From NCBI GenBank assembly GCA_963813065.1, contig CAWEXP010000009.1, forward strand, positions 1,931 through 65,930: a stretch of DNA of 64,000 bases, given 5' to 3'. Numbering within the stretch: position 1 is the first letter of the stretch; each line of letters begins with the position of its first letter. The position numbers and the translations under genes were made by a program. Below are positions 4,721 to 63,067 of this stretch, one piece after another. This DNA comes from Candidatus Kaiserbacteria bacterium (GTDB lineage Bacteria; Patescibacteriota; Minisyncoccia; Phycocordibacterales; Phycocordibacteraceae). The notes under the pieces were generated by a model. It saw only the letters and a program-made list of their open reading frames with translations, made no database searches and was not told the origin of the DNA.

Positions 4721-4729
4721 CCCTTTACT

Positions 4730-4884: not shown

Positions 4885-6084
<1,200 letters not shown>

Positions 6085-12776: not shown

Positions 12777-12860
12777 CCGACCCTCCTTTGATACATGATC
12801 TCCTCATCGGTGCGGAAATCGAACACCCTGACTCCTCGCGGAGCGACCTACCCATACAGA

Positions 12861-20230: not shown

Positions 20231-20232
20231 TT

Positions 20233-45358: not shown

Positions 45359-46020
45359 CGCTATCGCTCGCAGAGCGGAAAGCACGCCCTACTTCGCTAA
45401 AGCTACGTAGGGCAAGGGCGAAGAAAATTGTCGCATACCTGAAGAAGACGTACCCGGTGCCCAAGAGCGAATTGCGGTACTCGACGCCCCTGCAATTCCT
45501 CGTGGCGGTGATGCTCTCGGCGCAATGTACCGACAAGACGGTGAATCGCGTCACGGAAAAACTCTGGAAGAAATACAAAACGGCGAAAGACTTTGCAAAG
45601 GCCAAGCCCGCTGTTTTCCAGAAAGAAATTTCGAGTATCACTTTTTTCCGCAACAAGACGAAAGCGATTATCAGTACCGCCAAAATCATTCAAAATGATT
45701 TTGGCGGTACGGTTCCACATACTGAAGCCGAGCTCGTCACTCTGCCTGGTGTCGGCTACAAGACCGCGCACGTCGTGCTCGGCGAGCTCTATGGCATCTG
45801 GGAGGGCATCGCGACCGACACGCACGTCAAGCGATTCGCGAAACGTTTTGACCTAACCGACAACGACGACCTTAAAAAGATTTCCAAAGACTTGGAGGTG
45901 CTTATACCGAAAAAAGACTGGAAATACGTCAACAACGGCCTTGTCCTCTACGGCCGCTACGTCTGTCCGGCCCGCCCGCATGATTGCTCTAGGCATCCGC
46001 TGACGCTGGCGGTACGATAG
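45355..46020 (+). CDS. nth: endonuclease III (HhH-GPD, 4Fe-4S)
   Basis: ...LVAVMLSAQCTDKTVN...LPGVGYKTAHVVL...DTHVKR...C.ARPHDC... It contains a 28-bp repeat at 45387-45414 in its N-terminal tail. Confidence 0.8.
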   Translation: MTLSLAERKARPTSLKLRRARAKKIVAYLKKTYPVPKSELRYSTPLQFLVAVMLSAQCTDKTVNRVTEKLWKKYKTAKDFAKAKPAVFQKEISSITFFRNKTKAIISTAKIIQNDFGGTVPHTEAELVTLPGVGYKTAHVVLGELYGIWEGIATDTHVKRFAKRFDLTDNDDLKKISKDLEVLIPKKDWKYVNNGLVLYGRYVCPARPHDCSRHPLTLAVR

Positions 46021-46024
46021 CGGC

Positions 46025-46709
46025 ATGCAAAAGGTCGCCGTATTCGACATCGACGGAACCGTCTTCCGCTCCTCGCTTCTGATTGAACTGGTCGAGCGGC
46101 TGGTGAAAGAAGGTGTGTTCCCACCCGAGACGCGTGCCGCGTATGAGGTCGAGCGCGTGCGTTGGCTCGACCGGAAGGGCGACTACCCGAGCTATATCAA
46201 TAAGGTCGTACAAGTTTTTGCAAAACAACTGAAAGGCGTGCCCTACGAGACGGTCGCGGACATTGCGGGCGAGGTGATTGAAGAGCAGAAGGACCGCGTC
46301 TATCGCTACACCCGCGACCTGATTCGCGAAGTGAAAAAGAAAAAATATTTCCTGCTCGCCATCTCGCACTCGCCCAAGTTTATTGCCGATGGCTTCTGTC
46401 ACGAGCAAGGGTTCGACAAGGTCTACGGCACCTTCTACTCGACCGGCCCCTCGGGCAACTTCACCGGCCTGATGGAGGATGAAGCGTTAATAAAAAATAA
46501 AGCGGCGGTACTCACGCGCGCGGTGCGGAAGGAGAGCCTGACACTCGAAGGCTCGATTGGCGTTGGTGACACCGAGAGCGACATCGGTATGCTCGATCTC
46601 GTCGAGCGTCCGATTTGTTTCAATCCGAATCAAGAACTCTACACGCATGCGAAGTCGTCGCGGATGGGAAGTGGTGGTGGAACGAAAAGATGTTATCTAC
46701 CAAATCTGA
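46025..46709 (+). CDS. HAD-superfamily phosphatase, frameshift near 46660
   Basis: FDIDGTVF DxDxT motif. The C-terminus continues in another frame (...RRGWEVVVERKDVIYQI-stop at 46707-46709). Confidence 0.55.
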
Positions 46710-47685
46710 GAAGCTGCGGCATATTTCTCGAAGGGTACGCGATTTTTCTGCTGAAAAATCGCTCAGTCCTCGTGCCAGTCGCACTGCGGAGCCCCTTCTC
46801 GCAACATGCCGCACCTTCTCGAACACTGTCTGGAGATTTTGGCGCGCACAGGGCCGTCATGATTTGCCGTGGAGGAAGACCAAAGACCCGTACCGAATTC
46901 TGGTGTCAGAAGTGATGCTCCAACAGACCCAAGTCGAGCGCGTGGTGCCGTTTTATCACCATTTCATAAAACAGTTCCCGACGGCGAAAAAGTTGGCGCG
47001 AGCACCGCTCGCAGATGTGTTGAAAAGTTGGCAAGGGCTCGGTTACAATCGTCGCGCGAAGATGTTGCACGAGGCGGCGCAAGAATTATCGAGGTTAAAC
47101 CTCGATATAACAAGGTCGAACCTTGTTGCGACGCTGGAAAAATTGCCTGGGGTAGGGCCGTACACGGCGCGCGCGGTGGCGGCGTTTGCCTACAATCAGG
47201 ACGTCGTTTTTGTTGAGACGAATATCCGGACGGCGATTTTGCACCATTTTTTTCCACGCGAGGCAGAAATGTCCCCGGCTCAGGGTGCTCCGGCCGCTAG
47301 GCCAATTCAACCCTTCGCCAAGGACATTTTTGCCTCGCGCGTTGACGACGCGCAGATTTCAACAGTCCTCGAAAAACTTTTGCCGAAAGGGAAGTCGCGC
47401 GAATGGTACAGCGCGCTGATGGACTATGGTGCACATTTAAAAAAGTCCGGTATACAAGTAAATGCAAAAAGTTCGCATTATATAAAACAATCGCGGTTTT
47501 CTGGCTCGAAGAGGGAAGCGCGTGGCGCGATCTTGAAGGAGCTGGCGCATGGCTCGCGGAGTGAGTCGCGCGTACTCGGGCTTCTCGGCCCCGACCGCGT
47601 CCCGCAGATGAGAGAAGCGCTCGCGGCGCTCCTCGCCGAGCAGTTGGTACAAAAAAACGGCAAGGTCTTCACCTTGCCGCGTTGA
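46690..47685 (+). CDS. A/G-specific adenine glycosylase-like (MutY / HhH-GPD) protein; start uncertain
   Basis: ...LPWRKTKDPYRILVSEVMLQQTQVERVVPFYHHFIKQFPT...LGYNRRAKMLHEAAQ...LPGVGPYTARAV... The ORF as read spans the repeat element. The true start may be downstream of it. Confidence 0.6.
   Translation: MLSTKSEKLRHISRRVRDFSAEKSLSPRASRTAEPLLATCRTFSNTVWRFWRAQGRHDLPWRKTKDPYRILVSEVMLQQTQVERVVPFYHHFIKQFPTAKKLARAPLADVLKSWQGLGYNRRAKMLHEAAQELSRLNLDITRSNLVATLEKLPGVGPYTARAVAAFAYNQDVVFVETNIRTAILHHFFPREAEMSPAQGAPAARPIQPFAKDIFASRVDDAQISTVLEKLLPKGKSREWYSALMDYGAHLKKSGIQVNAKSSHYIKQSRFSGSKREARGAILKELAHGSRSESRVLGLLGPDRVPQMREALAALLAEQLVQKNGKVFTLPR
46714..46828 (+). ncRNA. copy 2 of the ~115-nt structured repeat, 3' of the HAD gene
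   Basis: GCGATTTTTC-TGCT-GAAAAATCGC and GTGC-CAGTC-GCAC hairpins, with covarying pairs relative to copy 1. Confidence 0.5.
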
Positions 47686-47982
47686 CCGCTTTTGCGCGCA
47701 GTCCTTTCGTCCGATGCATACGGATGAATGCGCGCGATTTGAACGGTGCTGGTTTCGAGCCGTGTCCGCCACAGTCGGTACGTTTCTTGAACCATGTTTT
47801 GACTGGTGTGCCAGGAACGGGCCGAAGCAAGGTTCCCGATCCAGTACAACGCTTGCAGATTGCCATCGTTCCCTCACGAATTTTTACCTCGCCTTCTCTT
47901 ATTAGATTACCATTTTATACATAAATCACAACCCCCGCGGCTCTGCCACGGGGGTTGTGTTCGATTTTTAATTTCTTTTCAT

Positions 47983-49956
47983 CTACATCCCGATCAAGAC
48001 GGGGATTACCATCGGCGCTTTGTTGGTGCGCTGGAAGAGGAATCCGGCGACGACATCGGTGAGATTATTTTTCACGTAGTCGAGGTCGATCGGATTCATG
48101 TTGTGCGTCGAATCCTCGATCGTTTTCTTGATCAGCACGCGCGCCTCGTTGAGGAGCATCTGTGATTCACGCAGATAGATGAATCCGCGGCTGATAATGT
48201 CCGGCGACTTGCGGAGCTTGCCGGTCTTAAGGTTGACCGAGGCGATGATGACGAACATGCCATCCTTGGCGAGCGCTTGGCGGTCGCGGATGACCACCTC
48301 CTGCAGGCCGCCGATGGTGAAGCCGTCGACGACGAGCGGAGAATTCGGCACGCGCTGTTTGTGGACGTGCAGTTTCTCGCCCGCTTCGATGTCGACCACG
48401 GTGCCGTTGTCGCCCATGATGATCGTGTCCTTCGGGCGGCCCGATTGCTCGACTGCCTTCGCGTGGCAGGCGGTCATGGAGCGGAAGCCGTAGCTCGGCA
48501 TGAAGTATTTCGCGTTCACCTGCTTGTTGAACCAGACGAGTTCGCCCGTGTTGGCGTGTCCGGTCGAGTGGACGTCGCTCGAGCGGTAGTGGATGAGCGT
48601 GACATTCTGGCGGTAGAGATTGTCCTTCAATTTCTGGACGTTCAGCTCGTTGCCCGGAATCACCGACGAGGAGAGCACCACCGTATCACGCTCGCCGAGC
48701 GTGATGAACTTGTGCTGTTTCGTTGCGATGCGCATCAGCGCGGCGAATTCCTCACCCTGTGCGCCGGTGGAGATGATGACAATCTTGTCCGGTGAATAAT
48801 CACTCATCGCCTGCGCGGGGATGATGGTGCCTTTCTCGATTTTCAAGAGGCCCGTCTTCTCGGCAATTTCGATGTTGGTGCGGATCGAGCGGCCCTCGGT
48901 GACGACTTTCTTGCCGTACTTCTCGGCGCTCTGGATGATGTGCACCATGCGCTCGAACTGCGAGGCGAAGGTGCCGATAATCAGGCGGCCTTTCACCGTC
49001 TTGATAATCTCTTCGAGCGTTTCATGGACACGGCGCTCGGGAATCGAGAAGCCGTCTTTGTCTGCGTTGGTCGAGTCGGCAACGAAGAACAGATTTTTGT
49101 CCTTGCCGAGCTCGCCCCAGACCTTTTGCTCCTTCTCGCTCGCGATGCCGTTGTCGTGATCGAGCTTGAGGTCGCCGGTGATGACGACATTGCCCTGTGG
49201 TGTCTCGACCGAGATACCCATCGAGTCGGGAATCGAGTGCGTGACCGGGAAGAACTTCACTTTCGTGTGACCGATGGTCACCGACTGGCCGACTTCGACG
49301 ACTTTAATATCGAGCGGAGGCAGGTCGGGATATTCCTCCTGGCGGCGCTGGATCATCAGGCTCGTCAGATTCTGTGTGTAGATCGGCGGATTGCCGAAAC
49401 GCGGGAGCAGGAAGGGGATACCGCCGATGTGGTCGAGGTGGCCGTGCGTGATAATCACCGCGCGGACGCGCTCTTTATTTTTCTCGAGATAGGCGGTGTT
49501 GGGGAGAATGTAGTCAACGCCTGCGGTCGAGCCGTCTTCAGAGACGAACTGGAAGCCGGCGTCGAAGACGAGAATATCGCCATTCGCCTCGACGGCGAGC
49601 ATGTTGCGGCCGACCTCTTCGATGCCGCCGAGCGGAATGATGCGGACGGTCTCCGGTGCGGGGAGCTCGGGATAGTAGTCGGCGGACGGTACGTCGCGGC
49701 GCGGATTGGCACCCGGGCGGCGCAAGATGCGCTGGATGCGACGCGTGGCGCCACCGGGGCGACCGGCACCGCGGTCACTCCGCGGGCCGCGCGGTGCTCC
49801 ACTGCCGTGGTGTGGCGGTCGCGTGCCGCGATGCGGCGGACGTGCGCCAAAGCCCTGCCTATCGGCAGACAGGGGACGCCGATCCTCGCGCGGAGGATAC
49901 GGTCGTGAACTGGGGGCGGGGCTTGGGGCCGGCGCCGGTGCTGATGCGTGATTCAT
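47983..49956 (-). CDS. rnj: ribonuclease J with ~100-aa Arg/Gly/Pro-rich N-terminal extension
   Basis: ...IPLGGIEEVGRNMLAVE...ITHGHLDHIGGIP... MBL/beta-CASP/C-terminal domains are present. ATG at 49956 (MNHASAPAPAPSPAPSS...RPPHRGTRPPHHGSGAPRGPRSDRGAGRPGG...). Confidence 0.85.
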   Translation of the reverse strand: MNHASAPAPAPSPAPSSRPYPPREDRRPLSADRQGFGARPPHRGTRPPHHGSGAPRGPRSDRGAGRPGGATRRIQRILRRPGANPRRDVPSADYYPELPAPETVRIIPLGGIEEVGRNMLAVEANGDILVFDAGFQFVSEDGSTAGVDYILPNTAYLEKNKERVRAVIITHGHLDHIGGIPFLLPRFGNPPIYTQNLTSLMIQRRQEEYPDLPPLDIKVVEVGQSVTIGHTKVKFFPVTHSIPDSMGISVETPQGNVVITGDLKLDHDNGIASEKEQKVWGELGKDKNLFFVADSTNADKDGFSIPERRVHETLEEIIKTVKGRLIIGTFASQFERMVHIIQSAEKYGKKVVTEGRSIRTNIEIAEKTGLLKIEKGTIIPAQAMSDYSPDKIVIISTGAQGEEFAALMRIATKQHKFITLGERDTVVLSSSVIPGNELNVQKLKDNLYRQNVTLIHYRSSDVHSTGHANTGELVWFNKQVNAKYFMPSYGFRSMTACHAKAVEQSGRPKDTIIMGDNGTVVDIEAGEKLHVHKQRVPNSPLVVDGFTIGGLQEVVIRDRQALAKDGMFVIIASVNLKTGKLRKSPDIISRGFIYLRESQMLLNEARVLIKKTIEDSTHNMNPIDLDYVKNNLTDVVAGFLFQRTNKAPMVIPVLIGM

Positions 49957-50020
49957 ATATCGATTGGTTAGTTTCGGGCTTATAAATTGATAAAATAATT
50001 TGAAACCCGTACGTAAATAG

Positions 50021-51751
50021 TTATCGGTTCTTACTTTCAAAAATAGGCCAGACGCGATCGGTGACCAAGTACCAATCTGCAACGGTCGCGAAACGGTCGG
50101 CAGGCGTCGTGATCTGCGGAAGCTCGACCCCGCCGAGATTCTTCGGCACTGCGTAGACGAAGTCCGGTGCGTGCGTGAAGGCGGCGGGGTAGTCGGCCGA
50201 GACGGCGTCCTCAATCTTCTGCAGAGTCTCGACACGTTGAGTGGGATCAATTGCGCCCCGCGCCGCTTCGAGGAGGGTGTCGACATTTTTGTTGGCGTAG
50301 AGCGCGATGTTGAGGCCCGGGTCATTTCGCTCTTGCGAATCCCAGAAGGCGTAGAGGTCCTGATCGCGACCGATCACTTCGCCGAAGAGGAGTGCATCAT
50401 ACTTACGCGGTCGAATGACGTTCTGATTCAGGTCGCCGGGCTCGTAGAGCTCAATGTCGGTCGGGATGCCGAGCTGTTCCCAGTCGTGTTTAACCGCGCT
50501 CGCGACCGCCTTCAACTCGGGCACGTTCGACGTCTTAATCGTGATGTTCGTGAGCGATTGTTTCGCGGATGCATTTTTCCAGACATGTGCGTCGCCGTCG
50601 TAGCTCCAGCCCGCCGCTTCAAGGATGCCTGCGGCCGTCGCGGTCGGATTGGCGAGGGTGGGAATGGGTGTCTGCGCGACGCCACCGCCCGGAGGAATAG
50701 GCCCGATGATGGGCGTCGCGTAGCCGCCGAGCGCATTCTGGACGATGTGATCGCGGTCGATTGCGAGCGAGAGTGCCTTGCGCACCGGGAGCGAAGCAAA
50801 GACTTGGTCCTGGTTCGGATTGAAGAAGACGCCGAAGACGCGTGCGTAGGGCGCCGTGAGCACGTTTGAGGCTGGTGTGCCGTAGGCGCTCTCGATGGTG
50901 CCGTTCGTGAGCGCCTGGGCGAGGTCGTCATTGCCGGTGTAGAAGAGGAACTCCATCCCGTCGAGGTACGGACGTCCGAGCACGTAGCGATTATTCTCAG
51001 CAAGCGAGACACTCTGGATGAGGCCCGATGCATCAAGCGACACGCTCCGCACCGTGAAGGGCCCAGCGCCCACCGGACTCGTCTCGAGGGTCGAGAAAGG
51101 GAACTCCTCGTCGGAGACATTCTTCCAGAGGTGCGCCGGCAAGATGCCGAGCGTGGTCACTTCGAGGAAGGGCGCATACGCCTTGGGCAGAGTGAATTGC
51201 ACCGTCTGTGCATTGAGCGCCGTCGCCACCACACCCGACCAGTCCGCATACTCCGGGCTCTTCAACGCCGGATCTTCGGCTTTGTCGACGGTGAAGACGA
51301 CATCGTCGGCGGTCACGGGCGTTCCATCCGAGAACAGCACATCTTTTTTTAAGGTAAACGTATAGGTTTTCCCATCCGGCGAGAGTACGTAGTGGTCGGC
51401 AAGTATCGGTACGAGCGATCCGTCACTGGAGATCCCCATGAGTCCCGCGTAGGCGAGTGCGGAGAGGTCACGATCAGAATCAGAGATGGCAAGGAGCGGG
51501 TTGATGAAGCGTGGCGAACCAATCTCGCCCTCAACCAACGTACCGCCGTAGCTGGGGACGGTGACGAGGAGCGAATCCTCAAGTGCGTAGAGGCCCAAGA
51601 GGGCGGAGAAGCCGACGAGCACCGCAAGCACCCAGAAGATGACGCGGTCACCTGGCGAGAGCGCGGCGATGCGCTCCTCAAGCCGTACGAGTGCGCGAAT
51701 CGAGCGCGTCTCCTTGAGCCGCTCCAGCAAACGCGTAAATCGGTCGTTCAT
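50021..51751 (-). CDS. ABC transporter substrate-binding protein, family 5 (peptide/nickel)
   Basis: 576 aa with an N-terminal anchor and a SBP_bac_5-like core. Confidence 0.75.
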   Translation of the reverse strand: MNDRFTRLLERLKETRSIRALVRLEERIAALSPGDRVIFWVLAVLVGFSALLGLYALEDSLLVTVPSYGGTLVEGEIGSPRFINPLLAISDSDRDLSALAYAGLMGISSDGSLVPILADHYVLSPDGKTYTFTLKKDVLFSDGTPVTADDVVFTVDKAEDPALKSPEYADWSGVVATALNAQTVQFTLPKAYAPFLEVTTLGILPAHLWKNVSDEEFPFSTLETSPVGAGPFTVRSVSLDASGLIQSVSLAENNRYVLGRPYLDGMEFLFYTGNDDLAQALTNGTIESAYGTPASNVLTAPYARVFGVFFNPNQDQVFASLPVRKALSLAIDRDHIVQNALGGYATPIIGPIPPGGGVAQTPIPTLANPTATAAGILEAAGWSYDGDAHVWKNASAKQSLTNITIKTSNVPELKAVASAVKHDWEQLGIPTDIELYEPGDLNQNVIRPRKYDALLFGEVIGRDQDLYAFWDSQERNDPGLNIALYANKNVDTLLEAARGAIDPTQRVETLQKIEDAVSADYPAAFTHAPDFVYAVPKNLGGVELPQITTPADRFATVADWYLVTDRVWPIFESKNR

Positions 51752-51987
51752 TATCCTTGCAGAAGGAAGTTCGCGACTGCGGCAAGCACGAGGAGAACGG
51801 CAATTGCGATCGTCGCGTTGAAAAGAAATTTCTCGGCGCCTCTGCGCTTGTAAAAGGTCGACGCGAAATTATCGCCTCCGAATGCTCCCCCCAGTGTCGC
51901 GCCGCGCTGTTGGAGCGCGATGCCGGCAATGAGCAGGAGAGAGAGGATGATGATCGCGTACGGCAGTGCCGGTACGAGTGCCTCCAT
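51751..51987 (-). CDS. secG: preprotein translocase subunit SecG
   Basis: MEALVPALPYAIIILSLLLIAGIALQQRGATLGGAFGG... two TM helices with a Gly-rich loop. Confidence 0.55.
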   Translation of the reverse strand: MEALVPALPYAIIILSLLLIAGIALQQRGATLGGAFGGDNFASTFYKRRGAEKFLFNATIAIAVLLVLAAVANFLLQG

Positions 51988-52076
51988 CTGTAATGGCAAG
52001 ACTACCACGGTCGAATAATCTCTGCAAACCGAGGCGGGGATAAAATAAAAACCGGCGCGGAGACCGCGCCGGCTGA

Positions 52077-52334
52077 CTAATTTGGAGCAACTGCTCGATA
52101 TGCACCGATGAGGCACCCGACGACCATGCCGAAGATTGCGAGTAGGACGTACTCACGGCCGACGCTGTGCACGACGGCCAGCAGGACGGCGAAGATGATG
52201 ATCATGCTGAGCGCCAACCCACGGAGGATTTTCGCGATATCTGCCGCGACAATCCACTGACCGAGATAGAACGTTGCAAAGCCAGCGATAAGCGCGGCGA
52301 TGACCAATACCGAAACTACGTATCCAATGACCAT
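52077..52334 (-). CDS. small membrane protein
   Basis: 85 aa, two hydrophobic helices. Confidence 0.3.
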   Translation of the reverse strand: MVIGYVVSVLVIAALIAGFATFYLGQWIVAADIAKILRGLALSMIIIFAVLLAVVHSVGREYVLLAIFGMVVGCLIGAYRAVAPN

Positions 52335-52469
52335 GACTTTCCCTTTCCAGAACGCCGAATTAAACTTACCATAAGTATTTCAGACTGTCAAACCTCGTGA
52401 GCTTGCCTCGGTTCAATAATTTCCTTATACTCAATCCACCCGTTCGATTATTCATTTATATAAAGCAAT

Positions 52470-52772
52470 ATGGCAAAGAAGATTCCTATTACGCCCTTGG
52501 GCGACCGGATTGTGGTCCAGCCTGCGGAAAAAGAAGGCGAGAAGAAGCTCGCTTCGGGTATCATCATTCCCGACACGGCGAATAAGGAGAAGCCTGCGAA
52601 AGGTACGGTAGTCGCCGTTGGCGCGGGGAAATATGAAGACGGCAAGCGTGTGCCCATGACCGTGAAAGTGGGTGACCAGGTGTTGTTCTCCAAATATGGA
52701 TTCGACGAGGTGAAGGTCGGTGGCGAGGAATATTACATTCTCTCGGAGTCGAGCGTATTGGCGGTTATTTAA
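52470..52772 (+). CDS. groES: co-chaperonin GroES
   Basis: [37 protein letters not shown]... Confidence 0.95.
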
Positions 52773-52777
52773 TCTAG

Positions 52778-54418
<1,641 letters not shown>

Positions 54419-54649
54419 TTGTTTTACAGAAAAAAGACGCTCTTGTGCAAGGGGCGTCTTTTTCTTTCTGTGCGTGCTAGATTTCTCCTTGGAACGCCCC
54501 GGGAGGTTCCCATGCGCCTCGTTCGAAACTACATTCTGTATTCAGCTTGGATTGTGCTTGGTCTCGTCTTTCTCCTCGTCGCCTTTCTGCCGGCCATGTA
54601 TATCCTATTCATGCTGTAGTCCTAACCGCCGCGAGTACGCGGCGGTTTT

Positions 54650-55402
54650 TTATTCCACCGTTTCGTTGAAGGAGACTACCTCCCAGCCACGTTTTTTATT
54701 CCAGAAATGCCACGGATGATATTCGACAATCGAGATGCCGCCATTGTCGGAGGTATTGAAAAACGAGAGCTTCACATAGTCTGCAGAGTGGAGCGCGCGA
54801 CGGTACTGCATATACGCGAGCAACATTTTAAGAAACGCATGATGCGTCACGACGCACGTGTGGCGCGTGCCGTTGTGCGCAAGATAGCGGAGGCATTTCT
54901 GTGCGCGGCGCGCGAGGTCAAGGAAATTTTCTTCGTCGCGGTGGCGGTAGTCGTCGGCATGATACGCGAGATCCATCTCGTCGATGATGTGCATCACCTC
55001 AGGATCATGCGTTGATTTCCCCAGCACATCGCTCGGATTCCGGCGTTCGGCGAGGAGTGGGGAATAACGAATCGACGCATGTACATGCGTGCGGATAATC
55101 TCGGCGGTTTCTCGTGCGCGCTCGTAGGGGCTCGCGAGGATGCGCTCAATACCGAAGGGCGCGAGTGCGGTACCGACGCGCTCCGCCTGCTCTTTTCCTT
55201 TTTCGCTCAGGCCGCCCTCCGGCCCTTGTTTGCGGTGCGCCACATTCAGCAAGGTCTCGCCGTGGCGGACGAGGTAGAAACGCTTCGGGCGCATGCGGAG
55301 CACGATGAGCCATACGACCAGTATCGCGAGGATGGCGAGGCCGACCTCGCGCGTGAAGAAAGGCGCGAGTGCATAGCGGATGAGTTCAGGAGTCGTGGGC
55401 AT
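54650..55402 (-). CDS. membrane-anchored histidine phosphatase (phosphoglycerate mutase family)
   Basis: N-terminal TM, then FYLVRHGETLLN (RHG motif). Confidence 0.65.
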   Translation of the reverse strand: MPTTPELIRYALAPFFTREVGLAILAILVVWLIVLRMRPKRFYLVRHGETLLNVAHRKQGPEGGLSEKGKEQAERVGTALAPFGIERILASPYERARETAEIIRTHVHASIRYSPLLAERRNPSDVLGKSTHDPEVMHIIDEMDLAYHADDYRHRDEENFLDLARRAQKCLRYLAHNGTRHTCVVTHHAFLKMLLAYMQYRRALHSADYVKLSFFNTSDNGGISIVEYHPWHFWNKKRGWEVVSFNETVE

Positions 55403-55427
55403 GGAGCGGATATAGTATACTCGCCCT

Positions 55428-56936
55428 ATGATGTCGCTGAAACATTTTGCGCGTGCGTATTGGAAATATATTCTGCTTGCGGTGGTGGTTGTGGGTGTTG
55501 GCGGGTATTTCTTTTTTGGTTCTAGCCAATCACTCGGGGCGACGATGACCATTGCACCCGCAGACTTCCCGACGCAGGTCGCCGTCTCGGGGACCGTTAA
55601 GGCCGCCGAGAATGTGGCACTCGGCTTCGCGGCGAGTGGACGCGTCTCGGGCGTGTATGCGGCCGTGGGTGCGCATGTTTCTGCCGGCGATCTCCTTGCG
55701 ACGGTCGAGAATGGCGATATCGCGGCCGGTGTCGCGGGTAAGCAGGCGGCCGTTGCAGAAGCGCAAGCCAATCTCGACTCGCTCCTTGCCGGGACGCGCC
55801 CCGAGCAACTCGCCGTCGCTTCGACCTCGGTCGCGAGCGCACAGTCCGCATTAGTAAATGCGCTCCAGAGTGCCTACACCGCGAGCGATGCCGCCGTGCA
55901 CAACACCGTCGATGCTTTTTTCACCAACCCACGCGTCGCTCCGAAGCTCGCGTTTACGGTTTCTAATGCAACGTTGAAAACAACCGTCGAGAACGATCGC
56001 TCTACAGTCGAGACCGTGCTCTCGAACTGGGCGCTCGCGAACGCAAATCTCTCGAATGCGAATGTCGATGCGTCTGCACCGACCGGGCAGACCGCGCTCA
56101 CCCAAGTGATCGCACTTCTCGCCGATGCCAACAGTGCATTGAATCAGGCGGTGCCCGACCAGACCACGTCGTCGGCAACCCTCGCGGGCTATGCCACGGC
56201 GCTCGCCACGGCACGTGCCAATGTGAATGGCGCCGCGAGTACGGTGACCGCCGATCAGTCGGCGCTCGCCAGCGCAGAAAAGAATTTTGCACTGCTCCAG
56301 GCCGGCGCGACCGCGAATGATATCGCCGCCGCGCGTGCCGCGGTGGCCGCCGCCGAAGCAGATGTGGCGAATACCCAAGCCGCACTCGCCAAGACCCAGG
56401 TTCGCGCGCCCTTCTCGGGCACGGTGACGCAGATGGATGCGAAGGTGGGCGAAGTTATCTCACCCTCCGATTCGCAAATCTCTCTCCAGAGCGATGGCGT
56501 CTTCGAGATCGAGACGTATGTGCCCGAAGTTTCAATCGCTGGTGTTCTCCCGGGTGATTCTGCGAGCACAACGCTCGATGCGTATGGCACCAGCGTCATC
56601 TTCCCAACGAAGGTCGTCTCGGTCGATCCTGCCGAGACGGTGAAAGATGGTGTGCCGACCTACAAGACAACACTCACCTTCCTCTCTGCTGATCCGCGTA
56701 TCCGGAGCGGCATGACAGCCAACGTGGCTATCACCACCAGCACGCTCCGTGATGCTATTGTCATCCCCGCGGCCGCCGTCGGTATGAAAAATGGTCAACC
56801 CTATGTCTCGATACTCGCGGGAGGGAAGGTGATGGCGCGAACGGTCTCGACCGGCGTTTCTCCCTCCCTCGGCGAGACCGAGATTACGAATGGCCTCTCG
56901 GCAGGCGACGTCATTCTGCTCGCGCCGACTCCCTAA
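55428..56936 (+). CDS. efflux transporter periplasmic adaptor subunit (HlyD/MacA-like)
   Basis: N-terminal TM, a long Ala-rich coiled coil, and a C-terminal beta-barrel/MPD. Confidence 0.75.
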   Translation: MMSLKHFARAYWKYILLAVVVVGVGGYFFFGSSQSLGATMTIAPADFPTQVAVSGTVKAAENVALGFAASGRVSGVYAAVGAHVSAGDLLATVENGDIAAGVAGKQAAVAEAQANLDSLLAGTRPEQLAVASTSVASAQSALVNALQSAYTASDAAVHNTVDAFFTNPRVAPKLAFTVSNATLKTTVENDRSTVETVLSNWALANANLSNANVDASAPTGQTALTQVIALLADANSALNQAVPDQTTSSATLAGYATALATARANVNGAASTVTADQSALASAEKNFALLQAGATANDIAAARAAVAAAEADVANTQAALAKTQVRAPFSGTVTQMDAKVGEVISPSDSQISLQSDGVFEIETYVPEVSIAGVLPGDSASTTLDAYGTSVIFPTKVVSVDPAETVKDGVPTYKTTLTFLSADPRIRSGMTANVAITTSTLRDAIVIPAAAVGMKNGQPYVSILAGGKVMARTVSTGVSPSLGETEITNGLSAGDVILLAPTP

Positions 56937-56939
56937 CGC

Positions 56940-58199
56940 ATGTTCTCGGAGCTGAATCTACGCGTCGGATTCTATCTCGCTCTACGACAGATTCGTCGCG
57001 CGAGCGTCTGGACGACCGCACTCATCGTCTTCGTGATGCTCCTCACGTTTCTTAATCTCGTGGTAGTCACCGGACTCTTGGTCGGCATCGTTGTCGGCAT
57101 CTCGGATCAGTATCGCGATCAGGAAACGGGCGACGTCGTCGTCTCGGCACTCGATACCAAGGATTACATCCAGAACAGCCCGCAAGTCATCGCGTTTATT
57201 CGCTCACTCCCGGGCGTCGAGAAATATAGTGCGCGTTATATCGCGGGCGGCACCCTCGAGGCTAATTATCTGACGCGCACGGATATGAACGAGAAACCGA
57301 ATCAGACCGGCGCGACCATCGACGGCATTGATCCGGTGGCCGAGAATCAATTCTCGAATCTCGCCAGCTTCGTGAAAGAGGGGAGCTATCTCGCGCCCGG
57401 CGACTATGATGAAGTCCTGCTCGGGAGCCAACTCATCGATCGCTACTCCTTCGGCAAAGAGCCCGGGCTGACCCCGCTTGAAAATGTCTATCCGGGCACG
57501 AAGATTCGGCTGACGATTAATGGTTCGACGCGCGAGGTGACCGTGAAGGGCATCATCAGTGTGCCGGCGAACTCACCACTTGCGGCGCGCGCTTTCATGC
57601 CCGCGGCCGAAGTGCGCTCGCTCATGGGCCGTACCGACTACGATGTGAACGAGATTGGCATCTTGCTCACGCCGGGCACCGACCCCGCAGGCTTCCGCGA
57701 TTTGCTCGTGAAGAGTGGCATTGGTGCTGACGCGCTGGTGCAGACCTTCGCCGAGGCGACACCAAACGGCGTGGTCGATATCGAGAACACCTTCGGCGAG
57801 ATCGGCAATGCCATCGGCTCGGTCGGCCTCATCGTCGCCTCAATCACGATTTTCATCGTCATCTTCATCAACGCGATTACGCGCCGCAAGTTTATCGGCA
57901 TCTTGCAGGGCATCGGTATCTCGGGCGAGGCCATCGAGATCGCCTATGTCTTCCAATCACTCTTCTATGCGGCGCTCGGCTCGGGCGTTGGGCTTTTGAT
58001 TCTGTATGGATTCCTTGTGCCCTATATTGGCGCGCACCCGATTGTCTTGCCGATCAGTAACGCCATCATTGTCGCACCGGTGGCGGACACGGCGGTGCGG
58101 GTGCTCCTGCTCGTTATCGCCACCGTCATCGCCGGGTACCTGCCTGCGCGGATGATTGTGCGCAAGAATACGCTCGACTCAATTCTCGGTCGTTCCTAA
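56940..58199 (+). CDS. ABC transporter permease (FtsX/MacB-like)
   Basis: 419 aa with a large periplasmic loop and 4 TM. Confidence 0.75.
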   Translation: MFSELNLRVGFYLALRQIRRASVWTTALIVFVMLLTFLNLVVVTGLLVGIVVGISDQYRDQETGDVVVSALDTKDYIQNSPQVIAFIRSLPGVEKYSARYIAGGTLEANYLTRTDMNEKPNQTGATIDGIDPVAENQFSNLASFVKEGSYLAPGDYDEVLLGSQLIDRYSFGKEPGLTPLENVYPGTKIRLTINGSTREVTVKGIISVPANSPLAARAFMPAAEVRSLMGRTDYDVNEIGILLTPGTDPAGFRDLLVKSGIGADALVQTFAEATPNGVVDIENTFGEIGNAIGSVGLIVASITIFIVIFINAITRRKFIGILQGIGISGEAIEIAYVFQSLFYAALGSGVGLLILYGFLVPYIGAHPIVLPISNAIIVAPVADTAVRVLLLVIATVIAGYLPARMIVRKNTLDSILGRS

Positions 58200-58203
58200 T
58201 CCC

Positions 58204-58878
58204 ATGATTGATGTAAAAAATTTGGTAAAGACGTTCAAGGATGGTCCGCGCGAGACGCGCGTGCTGAAGGGCATCAATTTCAAAGTCGAGGATGGCGAGT
58301 TCGTCGCCATCATGGGCCGTTCGGGCGCGGGCAAGAGCACCTTTATGTACCAAATGTCGCTTCTCGACGAGCCGACCAGCGGCGAAATTCATATCAATGG
58401 TATCGAGGCGCACACCATGACGAGTCGCGAGAAAATGCATCTCCGCCTCACCGAGTTCGGCTACGTCTTCCAGGATTATGCGCTCCTGCCCGAGTTGACC
58501 GCGCTCGAGAACGTCGTCGTGCCACTTCTCATGCAAGGACTCTCGGTGAGCCACGCCGAGGCGGAGGCGGGGAAGGCGCTCGGCCGCGTCGGACTCGAGG
58601 GTCGCCTCGACAATCTCCCGAGCCAGCTCTCGGGCGGCGAACAACAGCGCGTCTCGATTGCGCGCGCCGTTGCCCACAACCCCTCGGTCCTTTTCGCCGA
58701 CGAACCGACCGCAAACCTCGATCGCGAATCCTCGGGCACCGTCATGCAACTTTTCAAAAATCTCCACGACGCGGGGCAGACCATCATCATGGTAACGCAC
58801 GAAGAAGAGTACGCGCGCCTCGCGAGTCGGCTGGTCAAGCTCGACGACGGCAATATCGTTTCAGAAGAGAAGTTATAA
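58204..58878 (+). CDS. ABC transporter ATP-binding protein (MacB/LolD-like)
   Basis: Walker A GRSGAGKST, signature LSGGEQQR, Walker B LFADEPT. Confidence 0.85.
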   Translation: MIDVKNLVKTFKDGPRETRVLKGINFKVEDGEFVAIMGRSGAGKSTFMYQMSLLDEPTSGEIHINGIEAHTMTSREKMHLRLTEFGYVFQDYALLPELTALENVVVPLLMQGLSVSHAEAEAGKALGRVGLEGRLDNLPSQLSGGEQQRVSIARAVAHNPSVLFADEPTANLDRESSGTVMQLFKNLHDAGQTIIMVTHEEEYARLASRLVKLDDGNIVSEEKL

Positions 58879-58885
58879 TAGAGCG

Positions 58886-59059
58886 ATGAGTAGCAAAGCG
58901 TGGGTCTGGGGCGGAGCGGCAATCGGCTCGACCGTCGGGAGTATCCTGCCGTACTTCTGGAACGGCGACTGGTTCTCCTATTCACTCTGGGGCACCATCG
59001 GCGCCATAGTCGGGATTTGGTGTGGCTTCAAACTCGCGAAGGCGACCGGAGCATTCTGA
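58886..59059 (+). CDS. 57-aa glycine-zipper small membrane protein
   Basis: MSSKAWVWGGAAIGSTVGSILPYFWNGDWFSYSLWGTIGAIVGIWCGFKLAKATGAF. Below the ORF-track cut-off. A terminator at 59080-59110 follows. Confidence 0.3.
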   Translation: MSSKAWVWGGAAIGSTVGSILPYFWNGDWFSYSLWGTIGAIVGIWCGFKLAKATGAF

Positions 59060-59117
59060 CTGAATACAAAACACCCGCGGCGGTACTCCGCCGCGGGTGT
59101 TTTTTGATTGAATCTAA

Positions 59118-59507
59118 TTACCCGATGAATCCGCTGTAGGCGAGGTAGGCACCGACCACGAACACGATGATGCCGATCAGCGACCAGAGCTTCTCGATCA
59201 TCTCGGCTCGGTAGAGGCCGCGCAGTCCGGCCGGAGGGACGAGGAGGAAGGCCGCACCTTTCACCACCATCGCCCAACCGATGAGGGTGACCACGAAGGC
59301 GAGCACACCGGCGTTCCAAATATTGTGGGTCAGCACGACGACGAGACCGAGGAAGAGCGTCACGAACCCGGTCATCATCAGGGTGCCACGATGTTCGAGC
59401 AGGTCGTGCGTGGCCTGCTTCATCATGTTTCGGTTAATCAGCATCGCGAGGCCGAGGGCACCATAGAGAAAGCCGAAGATTTCTGCGTAGAAATAAGTAA
59501 GTGGCAT
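59118..59507 (-). CDS. integral membrane protein
   Basis: 4 TM; start probably MPLTYFYAEIF. Confidence 0.35.
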   Translation of the reverse strand: MPLTYFYAEIFGFLYGALGLAMLINRNMMKQATHDLLEHRGTLMMTGFVTLFLGLVVVLTHNIWNAGVLAFVVTLIGWAMVVKGAAFLLVPPAGLRGLYRAEMIEKLWSLIGIIVFVVGAYLAYSGFIG

Positions 59508-59578
59508 AGGGGGGAATAGGTGTATAAGCGAACCCAGATAGTATAGAACAAAAAACTTTGATACAGTGCCTTGGCACT

Positions 59579-59667
59579 GGAGGGGTCGCATAGAGGCCTA
59601 GTGCGGCGGGTTGCTAACTCGCTATACGGGTTAAACCGTATCGAGGGTTCGAATCCCTCCCCCTCCG
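59579..59667 (+). tRNA. tRNA-Ser (anticodon GCU), CCA not encoded
   Basis: Acceptor GGAGGGG/CCCCTCC. Anticodon loop TTGCTAA. Long variable arm TATACGGGTTAAACCGTATC. T-arm GAGGG-TTCGAAT-CCCTC. Confidence 0.85.
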
Positions 59668-59736
59668 CCCGTACTTGCTTTTATCTATATACTGTGGTAT
59701 CGTCTCCTTCAGGAAAGTTTCAGAGGAGAAAAAGTC

Positions 59737-60325
59737 ATGTGCACGGTCGTAGGAAAAGATGCCGCCATCGCGGTCTCGATTGACGATTTGCAAACGTTCG
59801 GTTGTCCGTACTGCGGCTACCGTTCGGGCTATACGCCAATTTCTGGCTATGGCACAGCGGTGTGGGTGTGCGGAGAATGCGGAAAGACCTCGTGTGTGCT
59901 CGCAAAGGGTCTCGAAGTCTCCCGCATCAGCTTCGGCAGTCCGCCAGTCTACCCGAAACTCGTCGAACATCCGCGCAAAGGAATCCCCGCGCACGGCGCA
60001 CTCGACACGAGGCCCGAGCATGGAGAATTTTTCCGTCCACGAGAGATTGGGAGCGGCGTTACGCCTGGCTGTTTCGTTTGTGGCGGCCCTGAGCGCTTGT
60101 ACACCGATATGGCCGGGTTCGTGCAGTGCAAGGACGCGGGCGAACGCGTGGTCAAGCTCTTTGAGCACGGCGCGTGGCTCGACTATCGCGAGTACGAGCC
60201 CGACCGCGTGCAGGTCAAGATTGGCGCATGCGATACGCACGTGCCGAATCTCAAGCGTCTTGTACGAGCTCGTGCGGGACGCCGTCATCACGCCAGAACT
60301 CATCAAAGAAGCTCAAGAAACATAA
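59737..60325 (+). CDS. multi-CxxC zinc-ribbon protein; frameshift near 60250
   Basis: CPYCGY...CGECGKTSC...CFVCGG... The last ~25 aa (…LYELVRDAVITPELIKEAQET-stop at 60325) are in another frame. Terminator at 60335. Confidence 0.4.
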
Positions 60326-60382
60326 GAGTAACGCGCCCGGATTCGTCCGGGCGCTTTTTATATCCGGTGCTATAGTTCCCGC

Positions 60383-61468
60383 ATGGACATCGCTCACTCG
60401 CTCTACAAAGCCGCCAAGCCGCTTATTTATATGACCGATCCGGAGATGGCGCACGAGGCGATGCTCTTCGCCGGCGAGCTCTCGGGCTCGACACTACTTA
60501 CGCGCGCAGTCATCGCGAGCATGTATCGCTATCGCGGAGAGGATATTTCGAAAGTAGTCGATGGAGTGAAATACGAGACGCCCGTGCTCCTCTCCGCTGG
60601 GTTCGACCCGAACGGCCGCCTCACGCGCGTAATGCGCGATATGTCCTTCGGTGGCGAAGAGATCGGCTCGACAACGGCGTATCCCTGCATTGGGAACCCC
60701 AAGCCGCGCATGACGCGCTTGCCCAAGAACGAGAGCATCATCGTCTACAAGGGCCTGCGCAATCACGGCGTCGACACGCTGATTAAGAAATTACAGAGGA
60801 CGAAGAGCGCGCCGGGCTACGTGCTCGGCATCTCGATTGCACTCACCAATTATCGCAAGGAGAGTTGTGCGACGATCGAGGGCGCGATCGAGGATTACGT
60901 CATCTCATTTAAAAAATTGAACGAGGCAAAAGTGGGCGATTACTACACGCTCAATATTTCTTGCCCCAACACCAACGGCGGCGTCGAGGAGATGTTGCAA
61001 GAGCCGGAGAATTTCGAAAAACTGCTCGTCGCGATTAAAAAAATCCCGAGCACCCAGCCGCTCTATATCAAGATGCCGATTAACCTAACGATGGACCACT
61101 TCGATGCGCTTCTCGACGTCGCGGATAAAAATGGTGTCGACGGCGTCATCTGCGGCAACCTTAATAAAAACTGGGACGAACTCGACGATCGGAGCGAAGC
61201 GCCCAAAGCGTGGCGTGGCGGCCTCTCGGGCAAGCCCTGCTGGGCGCGCTCGACCGCACTCGTGCGTCACACGCGCGAGAAATATGGAAAGCGGTTTACG
61301 ATTATCGGCACGGGCGGCATCCTCTCGCCCGAGGACGCGATGGAAAAATTCCGCGCGGGCGCCGACCTCGTGCAGATGATTTCCGGCATGATTTTCGATT
61401 CGCCTTCAATCATGAAGCACATCTGCGAACGGTACGCAAAAGAGCGTCCAGGTTATACTCACCCGTAA
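60383..61468 (+). CDS. pyrD: dihydroorotate dehydrogenase (quinone; class 2)
   Basis: 361 aa with ...GFDPNG...NISCPNT...IIGTGGI... Confidence 0.85.
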   Translation: MDIAHSLYKAAKPLIYMTDPEMAHEAMLFAGELSGSTLLTRAVIASMYRYRGEDISKVVDGVKYETPVLLSAGFDPNGRLTRVMRDMSFGGEEIGSTTAYPCIGNPKPRMTRLPKNESIIVYKGLRNHGVDTLIKKLQRTKSAPGYVLGISIALTNYRKESCATIEGAIEDYVISFKKLNEAKVGDYYTLNISCPNTNGGVEEMLQEPENFEKLLVAIKKIPSTQPLYIKMPINLTMDHFDALLDVADKNGVDGVICGNLNKNWDELDDRSEAPKAWRGGLSGKPCWARSTALVRHTREKYGKRFTIIGTGGILSPEDAMEKFRAGADLVQMISGMIFDSPSIMKHICERYAKERPGYTHP

Positions 61469-61471
61469 CGT

Positions 61472-61822
61472 ATGAATCCCGAAGCCCATAAAATTATTCC
61501 CGAGACCGTCGCAGATGCGGCAGTGCTCTATGAGGGCAAAGTATTTCAGGGAACTACACACGGGCACGCCCTCGGCAAATTGCTTGAATATCTAAAAGGT
61601 GCGGATCCAGATTTATATACCAAGGTTGGTGGAGAGGAGTATGGGCTCGTCGAGGAGCTCGAACACCGTTCGCCGGGTACTTATGACTTCGAAGGATTTG
61701 TTACTAGTACCGGTCGATACATCAATCGAACCGAGGCAAATACCATCGCCGAAAGGAATGGTCAGCGCATCGGCTGGAAGCCTCCCGGTAGTGATTTGTA
61801 TTCGGAAGAACTAAGAGGCTAG
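61472..61822 (+). CDS. hypothetical protein
   Basis: 116-aa ORF translationally coupled to pyrD. Confidence 0.35.
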   Translation: MNPEAHKIIPETVADAAVLYEGKVFQGTTHGHALGKLLEYLKGADPDLYTKVGGEEYGLVEELEHRSPGTYDFEGFVTSTGRYINRTEANTIAERNGQRIGWKPPGSDLYSEELRG

Positions 61823-61862
61823 ATTTTTATATAAAAAAGGACACCCGAGGGTGTCCGTGTCG

Positions 61863-62366
61863 TTAGTGTTTGTTGTCGGCGATAATTTGCGACGCCGCTT
61901 TGAGAATCGCGGTGGTCGAGGAATAGTCCACGACATCGCGAATGATTTTTGTGCCCCTTCGCGCATGTTCTCGCCCGACGATGGTGTGTTCAAGATTGCG
62001 GAACTCGTCATTCTTGAAGATCCAGTCTGGCTCGGTGAGTTTCGCCACGAGGCCGAAGTCCTCAACGCTGTTGATGATGCATGAGAATGTTACCTGCTTG
62101 AGCGCGTCGACGATCGCGACACGACGCGAGTCGTAGATTACGGGGCGTCCCTCGCCCTTATGCGCACGCACCAGCTCGTCCGAGTCGACGCCGACGATGA
62201 GCACGTCGCACCACCGCTGACATTTGATGAGATAGTCGAGATGCAGGCAGTGGAATAGGTCGAAGGAGCCGGAGGTGAGACCGATAGTCTGATTTTTCTC
62301 TTGAGTTTGCTTGAGATAGGACTGAACCACCTCGACCGAAGTCGATTCTTTCAGATCAAAGAGCAT
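61863..62366 (-). CDS. cytidylyltransferase-like nucleotidyltransferase (HxGH family)
   Basis: TSGSFDLFHCLHLDYL (HxGH-type motif) ... ISST-like region. Confidence 0.6.
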   Translation of the reverse strand: MLFDLKESTSVEVVQSYLKQTQEKNQTIGLTSGSFDLFHCLHLDYLIKCQRWCDVLIVGVDSDELVRAHKGEGRPVIYDSRRVAIVDALKQVTFSCIINSVEDFGLVAKLTEPDWIFKNDEFRNLEHTIVGREHARRGTKIIRDVVDYSSTTAILKAASQIIADNKH

Positions 62367-62404
62367 TATCGTTTCCTCCAGAAACCGCCAGAGTTATACC
62401 ATGC

Positions 62405-63067
62405 TTAGTGCGCCCAGGCAATTGCGAGGACATTTTGTGCTCCCGCAGATTTGAGCGCAGAACACGCCGAGGCGAGTGTCGCGCCGGTGGTAACGACGTC
62501 GTCGCAGACAATGTAGGTATGCTCGGCCCCACTTCGCTCTTCGAGCCTTGTCGGGCATTGGAAGGCGCCGCGCATGTTGCTCAAGCGTTCTCGGCGGGGG
62601 AGCGAGACTTGGGATGTGGTTTCTCTTGTGCGCACTAACAAATTGGGGCTCGTGATTATTTTAACGTCTGTTGTCCCTACTTCGCTAAAGCTACGTAGGG
62701 CACGGCGCGTCACTTCTTCGACCTGATTGAATCCGCGCTCACGTCGCCGCTCTTTCCCTAGTGGCACCGGCACGAGTACGATGTTGGGTTTCGTAAACCC
62801 TACATTCTCGCTTACGAGCTCATGCAGATATTCGGCGAGTGCCGAAGCGAGAAGCATAAATGCTTTCTCGTTGCCGTGATATTTTGCCTCGTGGATTGCC
62901 GCGCGGACGGAATCGTCGGGGAAGGGTAGGAGTGCGGTTACGATGAGGCCGCCCCCGCCGACGATTTCCGGCGCGAGGAGTGCGAGGAAGTCGTCGGGCG
63001 AGCAATCGCGCACTCTTTTTTCATCGGCGCGGGTGGGGAAAAGCAGTTCGAACAGGCGAGCGAGCAT
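62405..63067 (-). CDS. comF: ComF-family phosphoribosyltransferase-like competence protein
   Basis: ...RGFNQVEE... and the PRTase motif YIVCDDVVTTGATL. It contains the 28-bp repeat at 62675-62702. Confidence 0.75.
   Translation of the reverse strand: MLARLFELLFPTRADEKRVRDCSPDDFLALLAPEIVGGGGLIVTALLPFPDDSVRAAIHEAKYHGNEKAFMLLASALAEYLHELVSENVGFTKPNIVLVPVPLGKERRRERGFNQVEEVTRRALRSFSEVGTTDVKIITSPNLLVRTRETTSQVSLPRRERLSNMRGAFQCPTRLEERSGAEHTYIVCDDVVTTGATLASACSALKSAGAQNVLAIAWAH

Follow-up and report, generated by a model that had tools for sequence, protein, structure and literature searches.

A REP-like hairpin repeat of about 30 nt within the nth and comF genes of a Candidatus Kaiserbacteria contig

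We analysed a stretch of 64,000 nucleotides from Candidatus Kaiserbacteria (GenBank assembly GCA_963813065.1, contig CAWEXP010000009.1, positions 1,931 to 65,930; here called the window), in which one 28-mer, CCCTACTTCGCTAAAGCTACGTAGGGCA, occurs twice on the plus strand, once inside nth, the gene for endonuclease III, and once inside a gene of the comF family. The 28-mer is probably one variant of a family of palindromic repeats of about 30 nt, similar to the repetitive extragenic palindromic (REP) elements, which is present in Patescibacteria, Planctomycetota, FCPU426 and phage-like contigs, and which is mobile and renewed within genomes. Its members make up a multi-copy hairpin repeat that crosses phyla, with covarying stems and a conserved loop, and at the nth site 30 nt are dynamically present or absent among relatives. 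The two copies and their host genes are the following:

45387..45414, plus strand: copy A, the canonical 28-mer, in frame in nth, where it encodes PTSLKLRRA.
62675..62702, plus strand: copy B, identical to copy A, antisense within comF, where it is read as ALRSFSEVG.
45355..46020, plus strand: nth (endonuclease III), host of copy A, with matches to Pfam HhH-GPD (2e-21) and PDB 1p59 (2e-39).
62405..63067, minus strand: gene of a comF-family phosphoribosyltransferase, host of copy B, assigned by homology.

The initial annotation, made from the letters alone, had described this exact pair, its terminal inverted symmetry (CCCTAC...GTAGGG) and its placement in the N-terminal tail of endonuclease III and, on the other strand, in a variable loop of ComF, and all of these descriptions are borne out. 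No other match with up to three mismatches exists in the window, and 100 dinucleotide-preserving shuffles gave 0 matches, in agreement with the view that the pair is not expected by chance. The flanks of the two copies are unrelated and cannot be aligned, the identity stopping at the 28-mer except for GG at positions +2/+3. Each strand of the 28-mer has one stop-free frame, which is the frame used in nth (plus strand) or in comF (minus strand), and the third plus-strand frame contains TAG. The start codon of nth and the stop codon of the peroxiredoxin gene that precedes it overlap as ATGA. In Nth, the peptide PTSLKLRRA occupies residues 12-20, N-terminal to the start of homology with solved Nth structures, and residue 3 of E. 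coli Nth aligns with residue 19 of the window protein. In ComF, ALRSFSEVG corresponds to residues 123-131, in a segment of variable length among orthologues; in relatives, comF adjoins type IV pilus genes.

Comparison of family members defines a unit of about 30 nt, formed by a 26-nt hairpin and a tail. The outer stem has 6 bp and differs in sequence between genomes while its complementarity is kept, and it encloses a conserved, asymmetric 3x3 internal loop, with TTC opposite TNC, and a covarying inner clamp of 3 bp (GCY/RGC) around a 2-nt RA centre. The 3' tail is unpaired and reads CA-R-G(-C), or G-C-Y-T-G on the other strand, and the 5' flank shows a weak G-A preference. In the window variant a GTAG forms part of the stem, but it is not a conserved feature of the family. 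Folded as single-stranded DNA the hairpin is of moderate stability, from -3.5 to -6.4 kcal/mol.

The covariation is evident in three ways. A degenerate search pattern, with the loop fixed and stem positions 3-5 and 22-24 left free, matched 72 IMG/VR contigs, and in most matches the free positions were complementary (CCCGCC/GGCGGG, CCCTGC/GCAGGG, CCCTCC/GGAGGG, CCATAC/GTATGG and others). Positions 12 and 15 were C..G or T..A in 80/80 non-redundant copies, though the pattern permitted C..A and T..G. Finally, in an alignment of 83 sequences, 94.9% of stem cells were paired, against 26-56% when the partners were slid by one to three columns, and double-sided changes numbered 94, against 37.5+-4.2 in shuffles, none of the 500 shuffles reaching as high. 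A covariance model (R1), built from family sequences, was run on the window, where it gave 3 copies, and on about 785 kb of fetched loci (cited below by locus number), where it gave 127; copy A spans 45385-45418 in this model (50.4 bits, E 3e-9) and copy B spans 62673-62706 (49.2 bits, E 5e-9). The Rfam database gave no match around copy A at E<=10, and a scan of the whole window at gathering thresholds returned one tRNA only.

At the nth site the family member behaves as a unit that is either present or absent. Of the 121 proteins made up by the window Nth and its 120 best homologues (identity 74-84%), 36 were filled, carrying RPTSLKLRRA or variants such as PTSPKLRRT, PTSLELRRA and PTSQELRR at exactly the same position, and the remainder, about 70%, lacked the ten residues with a clean gap. 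The filled or empty state barely follows the gene phylogeny, with a nearest-neighbour concordance of 0.66 against 0.58 in shuffles, and a filled protein can share 92% identity with an empty one. In two close filled/empty pairs the DNA differs by an exact indel of 30 nt (10 codons): the filled genes read GAATCACGC followed by CCTACTTCGCTGAAGCTACGAAGGGCACGT and GCGAAG, and the empty genes read GAATCACGC followed directly by GCGAAG. The 30 nt missing from the empty orthologues correspond to codons 12-21 of the window gene, about 45388-45417. A CACG(Y) microhomology lies on both sides of the nth element, and locus L015 also shows a filled/empty junction; we considered this repeat as a target-site duplication and rejected it, as the microhomology is specific to the site. 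The miniature inserted element that the initial annotation had offered among its explanations is thus right in kind, given the multi-copy hairpin family and the clean 30-nt presence/absence at nth.

The conservation of the element in nth goes beyond its peptide. Across seven filled nth genes the element has a nucleotide identity of 87%, compared with 70% in the 450 nt that come after it, and at third positions of codons for the same amino acid the identity is 80% in the element against 47% in the nth core, so that the DNA of the element is constrained, or younger, beyond what the peptide needs. The rare codons CTA, AGG, TCG and ACT are kept across nth orthologues, and other synonymous sites are saturated. 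These observations bear on the possibility that PTSLKLRRA in Nth and ALRS(L/F)(G/S)E(E/V)G in ComF are simply two protein-level motifs whose DNA is identical by codon coincidence. Many orthologues do have identical or similar peptides at corresponding positions, some with synonymous differences, as this reading would predict, but the two peptides, though unrelated as proteins, correspond exactly to the two complementary strands of a single DNA sequence, and the Nth peptide is missing entirely from about 70% of orthologues. In other phyla the same 28-mer occurs outside coding sequence, and the free stem positions covary in non-coding copies. With copies that encode no protein, covarying stems and conserved synonymous sites, protein-level coincidence is very improbable and can be regarded as effectively refuted. 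The initial annotation had proposed that the same residues written in different codons would indicate coincidence, and this rule does not hold here: the orthologues do show partly different codons, yet their third positions retain the excess identity just described, and since the peptides are translations of the two strands of one DNA element family, the shared residues are not a coincidence.

In related Patescibacteria a second HhH-GPD glycosylase gene follows nth at a distance of 1.5-2 kb, and a YafQ/ParE-type toxin pair often separates the two genes (L014, 7469-8167 and 9715-10398; L015, 9504-10181 and 11311-12273; L101, 3001-3699 and 5232-6128). Neither the covariance model nor a mismatch search gave matches in the second HhH-GPD genes of these three loci, so the repeat is apparently confined to nth.

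An exact short repeat common to unrelated phyla could also suggest a shared contaminant, and the initial annotation had named an assembly or contamination artefact among its explanations; a chimeric assembly, contamination or a synthetic oligonucleotide in the reads would be the forms it could take. Against this, both copies lie in frame at positions where orthologues from dozens of independent assemblies have diverged versions, and in an independent Logan assembly (P0121) the Nth protein scored 100% identical, with the N-terminal 51 residues, including PTSLKLRRA, the same. In addition, the variants with compensated stems mean that the family cannot stem from one oligonucleotide. On the basis of the orthologues and the independent assembly we consider an artefact effectively refuted, and the least probable of the explanations considered here.

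The comF site presents a different picture. Here the segment is longer in 35 of 120 orthologues, typically by 6 residues and with intermediates, and has the consensus ALRSLGEEG; on the strand of the element the orthologue DNA reads CCCTTC..TTCGC(T/C)..GAAG(A/T)G, and in one relative just the right half of the element is present. The insertion of 9-10 residues that the initial annotation had envisaged in both genes is therefore found at nth, as a clean ten residues, and is not found at comF. As both sites are occupied in many related genomes, they are old or recurrently used insertion sites.

The nth and comF copies are identical in the window genome only. Relative to the comF orthologues, the window gene has a V codon (GTA) that is unique to it, the orthologues having E, A, K or G, a change of the partner Leu codon from CTT to CTA, and a T12-A15 pair (SFS in place of SLG), and the three changes together yield both a perfect hairpin and identity with the nth copy of the same genome. 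Given these derived, compensatory changes, the identity of the two copies points to homogenisation or re-insertion within the genome. The only other genome that allowed a comparison between its own nth and comF copies was GCA_030681015, where the two copies share a 15-nt right half, a suggestive parallel to the window. The names borne by the best homologues of the window proteins point to a Patescibacteria genome (Paceibacteria/Kaiserbacteria-like). No nearer relatives of the window organism were found, the next ComF being 58% identical, nor were there any contigs from its relatives with the exact 28-mer.

The window holds a third, diverged family member, at the 5' end of the gene for ribosomal protein S5:

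19659..19692, plus strand: copy C (CCCGCTGTCGCTGAAGCTATGGCGGGCA), with 40.7 bits in the covariance model.
19622..20419, plus strand: open reading frame (ORF) of rpsE (ribosomal protein S5), host or neighbour of copy C.

Copy C was among the training sequences of the model, and its score of 40.7 bits is not independent. It has 8 mismatches to copies A and B, with a compensated stem (CCCGC/GCGGG) and an intact GCT-GA-AGC tip, and shuffles of about 270 kb gave no matches at up to 8 mismatches. Depending on whether S5 begins at the ORF start or at an internal ATG (19679), copy C forms either an N-terminal tail (PAVAEAMAGK) or part of the leader. PAVAEAMAGK is the third reading frame of the element, so that the three copies of the window use three different frames, and a peptide matching copy C is present only in the closest S5 orthologue (91% identical). 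After the three copies, the next-best model match in the window has 16 bits. A weaker match still lies at 18893-18925 (13.7 bits, E 0.5; GTCCCGCCTCGCCAAGGCTCTGACCGGCACC, with a CTCGCCAAGGCT core), 5' of rplR among the clustered ribosomal protein genes, and could be a decayed fourth copy or chance.

Beyond the window, the exact 28-mer was found in 6 contigs from 3 phyla among a GTDB set of 185,579 species genomes, namely Falkowbacteria, Saccharibacteria, two metagenome-assembled genomes of Sedimentisphaerales and two contigs of one FCPU426 metagenome-assembled genome, and also in 11 metagenome contigs, with unrelated flanks in every case. These copies and the variants in the IMG/VR contigs are intergenic, at 5' ends of tRNAs or nested within other copies. 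The interpretation in the initial annotation is supported in part; it did not include the rpsE copy, the spread across phyla, the occupation of the same sites in relatives or the restriction of the identity to this genome. An origin from a tRNA or rRNA fragment was rejected because the exact 28-mer is so rare among the species genomes.

The arrangement of the copies is varied. The FCPU426 locus L004 has several variants within 8 kb, among them units of 37 nt in tandem, a copy whose loop holds a foreign hairpin, and a duplicated left half, and copies nested in the loop of another copy occur in L021, L085 and L091. Inverted doublets are present in L088 and in a Sedimentisphaerales locus, the majority of copies being singletons. 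Densities range from 3 per 64 kb in the window to 6 per 8 kb in L004 and 10 per 14.5 kb in L067, and in loci related to the window there is one copy per roughly 20 kb or fewer. In L067, a phage-like contig with 48% GC and co-directional genes, the ten copies lie in short gaps between ORFs. A TGA codon lies directly 5' of the element in about 12-14 of 79 copies, where about 1 is expected, and a Shine-Dalgarno-like sequence with an ATG often follows within a few bases on the 3' side. Copies are more alike within contigs than between them (3.9 against 5.7 mismatches, with the contig taken as a proxy for the genome), and only 1.1% of between-contig pairs are identical.

At four independent loci the element overlaps the 5' end of a tRNA by 1-3 nt, always in antisense, with the CCC of the element pairing with the GGG of the tRNA; in this orientation, the hairpin would form the end of the 5' leader in the tRNA transcript, an arrangement that may reflect targeting or an effect on RNase P processing. 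The four cases are L001 (4649-4676, with tRNA-Glu at 4675-4747), L006 (5873-5900, with tRNA-Ile at 5797-5873), L028 (1034-1061, with tRNA-Val at 1060-1132) and L094 (888-915, with tRNA-Ile at 817-890), and two of the four tRNAs are tRNA-Ile(UAU).

No systematic flanking direct repeats of the target-site-duplication type were found at any offset. Some copies are directly flanked by tandem heptanucleotide repeats of locus-specific sequence (TAGCCGG, CGATACT, GTTCATA, TAGCTGN, CCAGCGA, CGTTGGA and CACGGGA), at L029 (about 5070-5111), L051 (about 4580-4660), L049 (about 6875-6902), L067 (about 7290-7330), L003 (5516-5565) and L004 (3238-3360 and 7060-7160). About 1-4% of flanks show a strong 7-nt periodicity, compared with 0.1% of control positions, and these repeats, real but limited to a few per cent of copies, were rejected as a general feature of the flanks. 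Two further classes were discarded. Copies of the window lie 17-26 kb apart, and tandem units elsewhere have 7-9-nt spacers, not the spacers of about 26-72 nt of a clustered regularly interspaced short palindromic repeat (CRISPR), and a miniature inverted-repeat transposable element (about 50-500 bp, with a fixed target-site duplication) does not agree with a unit of about 30 nt and no systematic direct repeats.

The placement of the copies leads to an alternative in which the repeat is not mobile, but is a functional cis-element whose loop is the site for a conserved host factor, such as an RNase, a ribosomal or RNA-binding protein or an enzyme that binds single-stranded DNA, and which is kept by purifying selection, the nth and comF copies being regulatory. 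The loop and tip conserved across phyla and phage contigs, stems that covary like those of a structured nucleic acid, the synonymous-site conservation in the nth element far above background, and the frequent positions after stop codons, upstream of ribosome-binding sites and at 5' ends of tRNAs would all be expected of such an element, and no transposase association was seen among 149 neighbouring ORFs or with a weak IS200-type probe. However, both orientations are about equally common (45 sense and 35 antisense relative to flanking or enclosing genes, by crude ORF calls, with no clear bias), the comF copy being antisense, and there are nested copies, tandem units and half-copies. Presence or absence at one site among close relatives is nearly independent of phylogeny, the host genes are functionally incoherent (a repair enzyme, a competence protein, a ribosomal protein, a phage portal) and there is no match to an Rfam family. 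We therefore consider this alternative unlikely as the main explanation.

The comF copy, in a gene that adjoins type IV pilus genes in relatives, also raises the possibility of a DNA uptake sequence (DUS or uptake signal sequence, USS), or of a genome-marking or polar motif of the competence or recombination machinery in bacteria that are naturally competent, similar to Chi or to the FtsK orienting polar sequences (KOPS). The uptake sequences of Haemophilus and Neisseria occupy tolerated coding positions, and the tail GGGCA(G/A)G resembles the E. coli KOPS motif, GGGNAGGG. Nevertheless, the density of the repeat in the window and in related loci is far too low for such a role, and the same sequence occurs across phyla and phages, which defeats self-recognition. 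The strict pattern had suggested that each contig carries a single orientation, but this same-strand bias vanished with the more sensitive search: the covariance model found 6 plus and 4 minus copies in L067, and L056 and L088 are mixed as well, so the rule of strand uniformity was abandoned. The association with GC skew is weak (55/85). A role in uptake or genome marking is accordingly highly improbable.

For the mobile, REP-like repeat that we favour, a possible sequence of events can be outlined. The hairpin may be mobilised in trans on single-stranded DNA, without target duplication, and two candidate routes are a HUH or RAYT-like enzyme (RAYT, REP-associated tyrosine transposase) and hairpin-driven template switching with microhomology at the junctions. 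Intragenic copies would be tolerated wherever an open frame of the element keeps the reading frame, and the inserted peptides would be passengers, in a disordered N-terminal tail in Nth and in a variable loop in ComF. Copies in one genome could be kept alike if a single master variant has recently been re-inserted, or through conversion specific to the element. RecA-type conversion between homeologous tracts of 28 nt seems unlikely on general grounds, and we speculate that an element-specific route or hairpin template switching would be more natural. A bolder extension, which we regard as doubtful, is that the repeat represents an undescribed cross-phylum class of hairpins of about 30 nt with a conserved loop, which would rewrite the same codon-level sites (nth, comF) and tRNA 5' ends through a loop-recognising enzyme, or through templated repair or template switching, using microhomology of 1-5 nt and renewing the copies to a master sequence.

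Several observations weigh against mobility of this kind. The ORFs adjoining 149 copies show no enrichment in transposases, the neighbours being phage portal and housekeeping genes, and an IS200-type probe gave no match in 1.04 Mb by tblastn, although this probe is weak. The copy density in the window is low, the GTAG/CGTC tag of the described REP superfamilies is absent, and the loop is conserved across phyla, for which a purely selfish element has no obvious need. The stem has decayed in several Nth orthologues, with A.A or C.A mismatches, so the pairing of the hairpin is not kept everywhere. In ComF, the filled and empty forms differ by 6 residues rather than 10, and hence the comF site is not a simple 30-nt insertion. 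Lastly, the identity of the nth and comF copies could be an ancestral sequence retained in both, which is unlikely.

The closest known kind of sequence is the REP element, including its intragenic forms. The GTAG- and CGTC-tagged REP superfamilies comprise palindromes of 20-40 bp with stems of 6-9 bp and complementary stem variants, and REPs of the GTAG-3 type have non-complementary trinucleotides between the stem and a short GC-flanked loop (Di Nocera, De Gregorio and Rocco 2013, PMC3733652). These REPs occur as singletons, dimers and clusters that adjoin ORF ends; a minority is intragenic, notably in DNA repair genes and at N-termini, adding about 10 residues per unit, and the CGTC REPs have no associated transposase (PMC3733652). 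The hairpin family shares the size, the complementary stem variants, the GTAG-3-type architecture, the occurrence as singletons, dimers and clusters and the location at ORF ends, and it likewise has a minority inside ORFs, including a DNA repair gene and N-termini, and no associated transposase found near its copies. In contrast to REPs, it carries neither a GTAG nor a CGTC tag but a CA-R-G(-C) tail, its loop is conserved across phyla and phage contigs instead of being confined to a genus or order, and its copy number in the Patescibacteria window is low. Real matches were also lacking in GenBank/RefSeq-derived plasmid (7.3 Gb) and phage (2.3 Gb) sets, which gave only marginal ones (E>=0.02).

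REPINs are inverted REP doublets with a RAYT gene and vertical inheritance within lineages (Bertels and Rainey 2011, PMC3116915; PMC3337134). The hairpin family resembles them in having genome-specific populations whose copies are more alike within than between genomes, in the presence of some inverted doublets (L088 and the Sedimentisphaerales locus) and in the absence of target-site duplications. It differs in that most copies are singletons, in that no RAYT was found near the copies (149 neighbouring ORFs, and the weak IS200-type probe over 1.04 Mb), and in that it spans phyla and viruses. The Rickettsia palindromic elements (RPEs) are in-frame palindromic insertions in conserved genes (PMC10969869), of which RPE-4/6 have been equated with CGTC REPs (PMC3733652). 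The in-frame insertion, the filled and empty states among orthologues and the position of the peptide in tolerated surface or terminal segments are common to both, whereas RPE-1 has about 100-150 bp against about 30 nt here, the sequences are unrelated and RPEs are confined to Rickettsia and relatives; these differences in sequence and length indicate the same behaviour, not membership.

A further likeness is to the mycobacterial interspersed repetitive units (MIRUs), repeats between the cistrons of operons in which the stop and start codons of the flanking genes overlap the repeat. Many of the phage-contig copies similarly have TGA directly 5' and a Shine-Dalgarno sequence with ATG directly 3', but MIRUs have 40-100 bp, form tandem arrays, keep a single orientation with respect to transcription and do not fold as hairpins whose stems covary. 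Compared with known REP-type repeats, the hairpin family is unusual in that its loop is conserved across phyla, in that it repeatedly occupies the same sites of conserved genes in streamlined genomes, and in its apparent renewal within genomes. A literature search by sequence or peptide returned unrelated primer matches only, and no publication that describes repeats of this type for the candidate phyla radiation was found.

Repeats are thought to be scarce in the very small, streamlined genomes of Patescibacteria, and yet one is found here in a repair gene, in a competence gene and in the leader or N-terminal tail of rpsE. Since Planctomycetota, FCPU426 and many phage-like contigs have the repeat with an identical loop, it is either a horizontally spreading micro-element or a motif read by widely conserved machinery. 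It explains recurrent peptides of low-complexity appearance in proteins predicted from metagenomes, which are six-frame readings of the element, and it can mislead the calling of start codons and the alignment of orthologues. The filled and empty nth alleles among co-occurring relatives, both present in JGI sample 3300013232 (Ga0170573_10418321 and Ga0170573_10032683), offer a testable system for movement of the REP type without a known transposase.

A single transposase-like gene is present in the window; it codes for a DDE/rve protein and belongs to a separate insertion sequence (IS), which nothing ties to the hairpin. Two inverted copies of a 1,064-bp segment, 99-100% identical, lie at 12860-13923 and 40332-41396, and the segment carries an ORF (40366..41217, minus strand, 283 aa) with a weak match to the integrase core (rve, DDE transposase), on account of which it is probably an IS. 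One copy lies among the clustered ribosomal protein genes, just 5' of rpsS, and the other adjoins msrA. An IS is unusual for a streamlined Patescibacteria genome, and the pair could be an assembly duplication.

A second, unrelated repeat of about 95 nt, with about 80% identity between its copies, is present at about 36040-36135 and about 46715-46810, one copy lying in the 3' extension of the HAD-hydrolase ORF that adjoins nth. The whole-window Rfam scan gave no match to it. It contains a 10-bp hairpin with compensatory changes (GCAATTTCTT..AAGAAATTGC in one copy, GCGATTTTTC..GAAAAATCGC in the other), and possibly represents a small RNA or another mobile hairpin.

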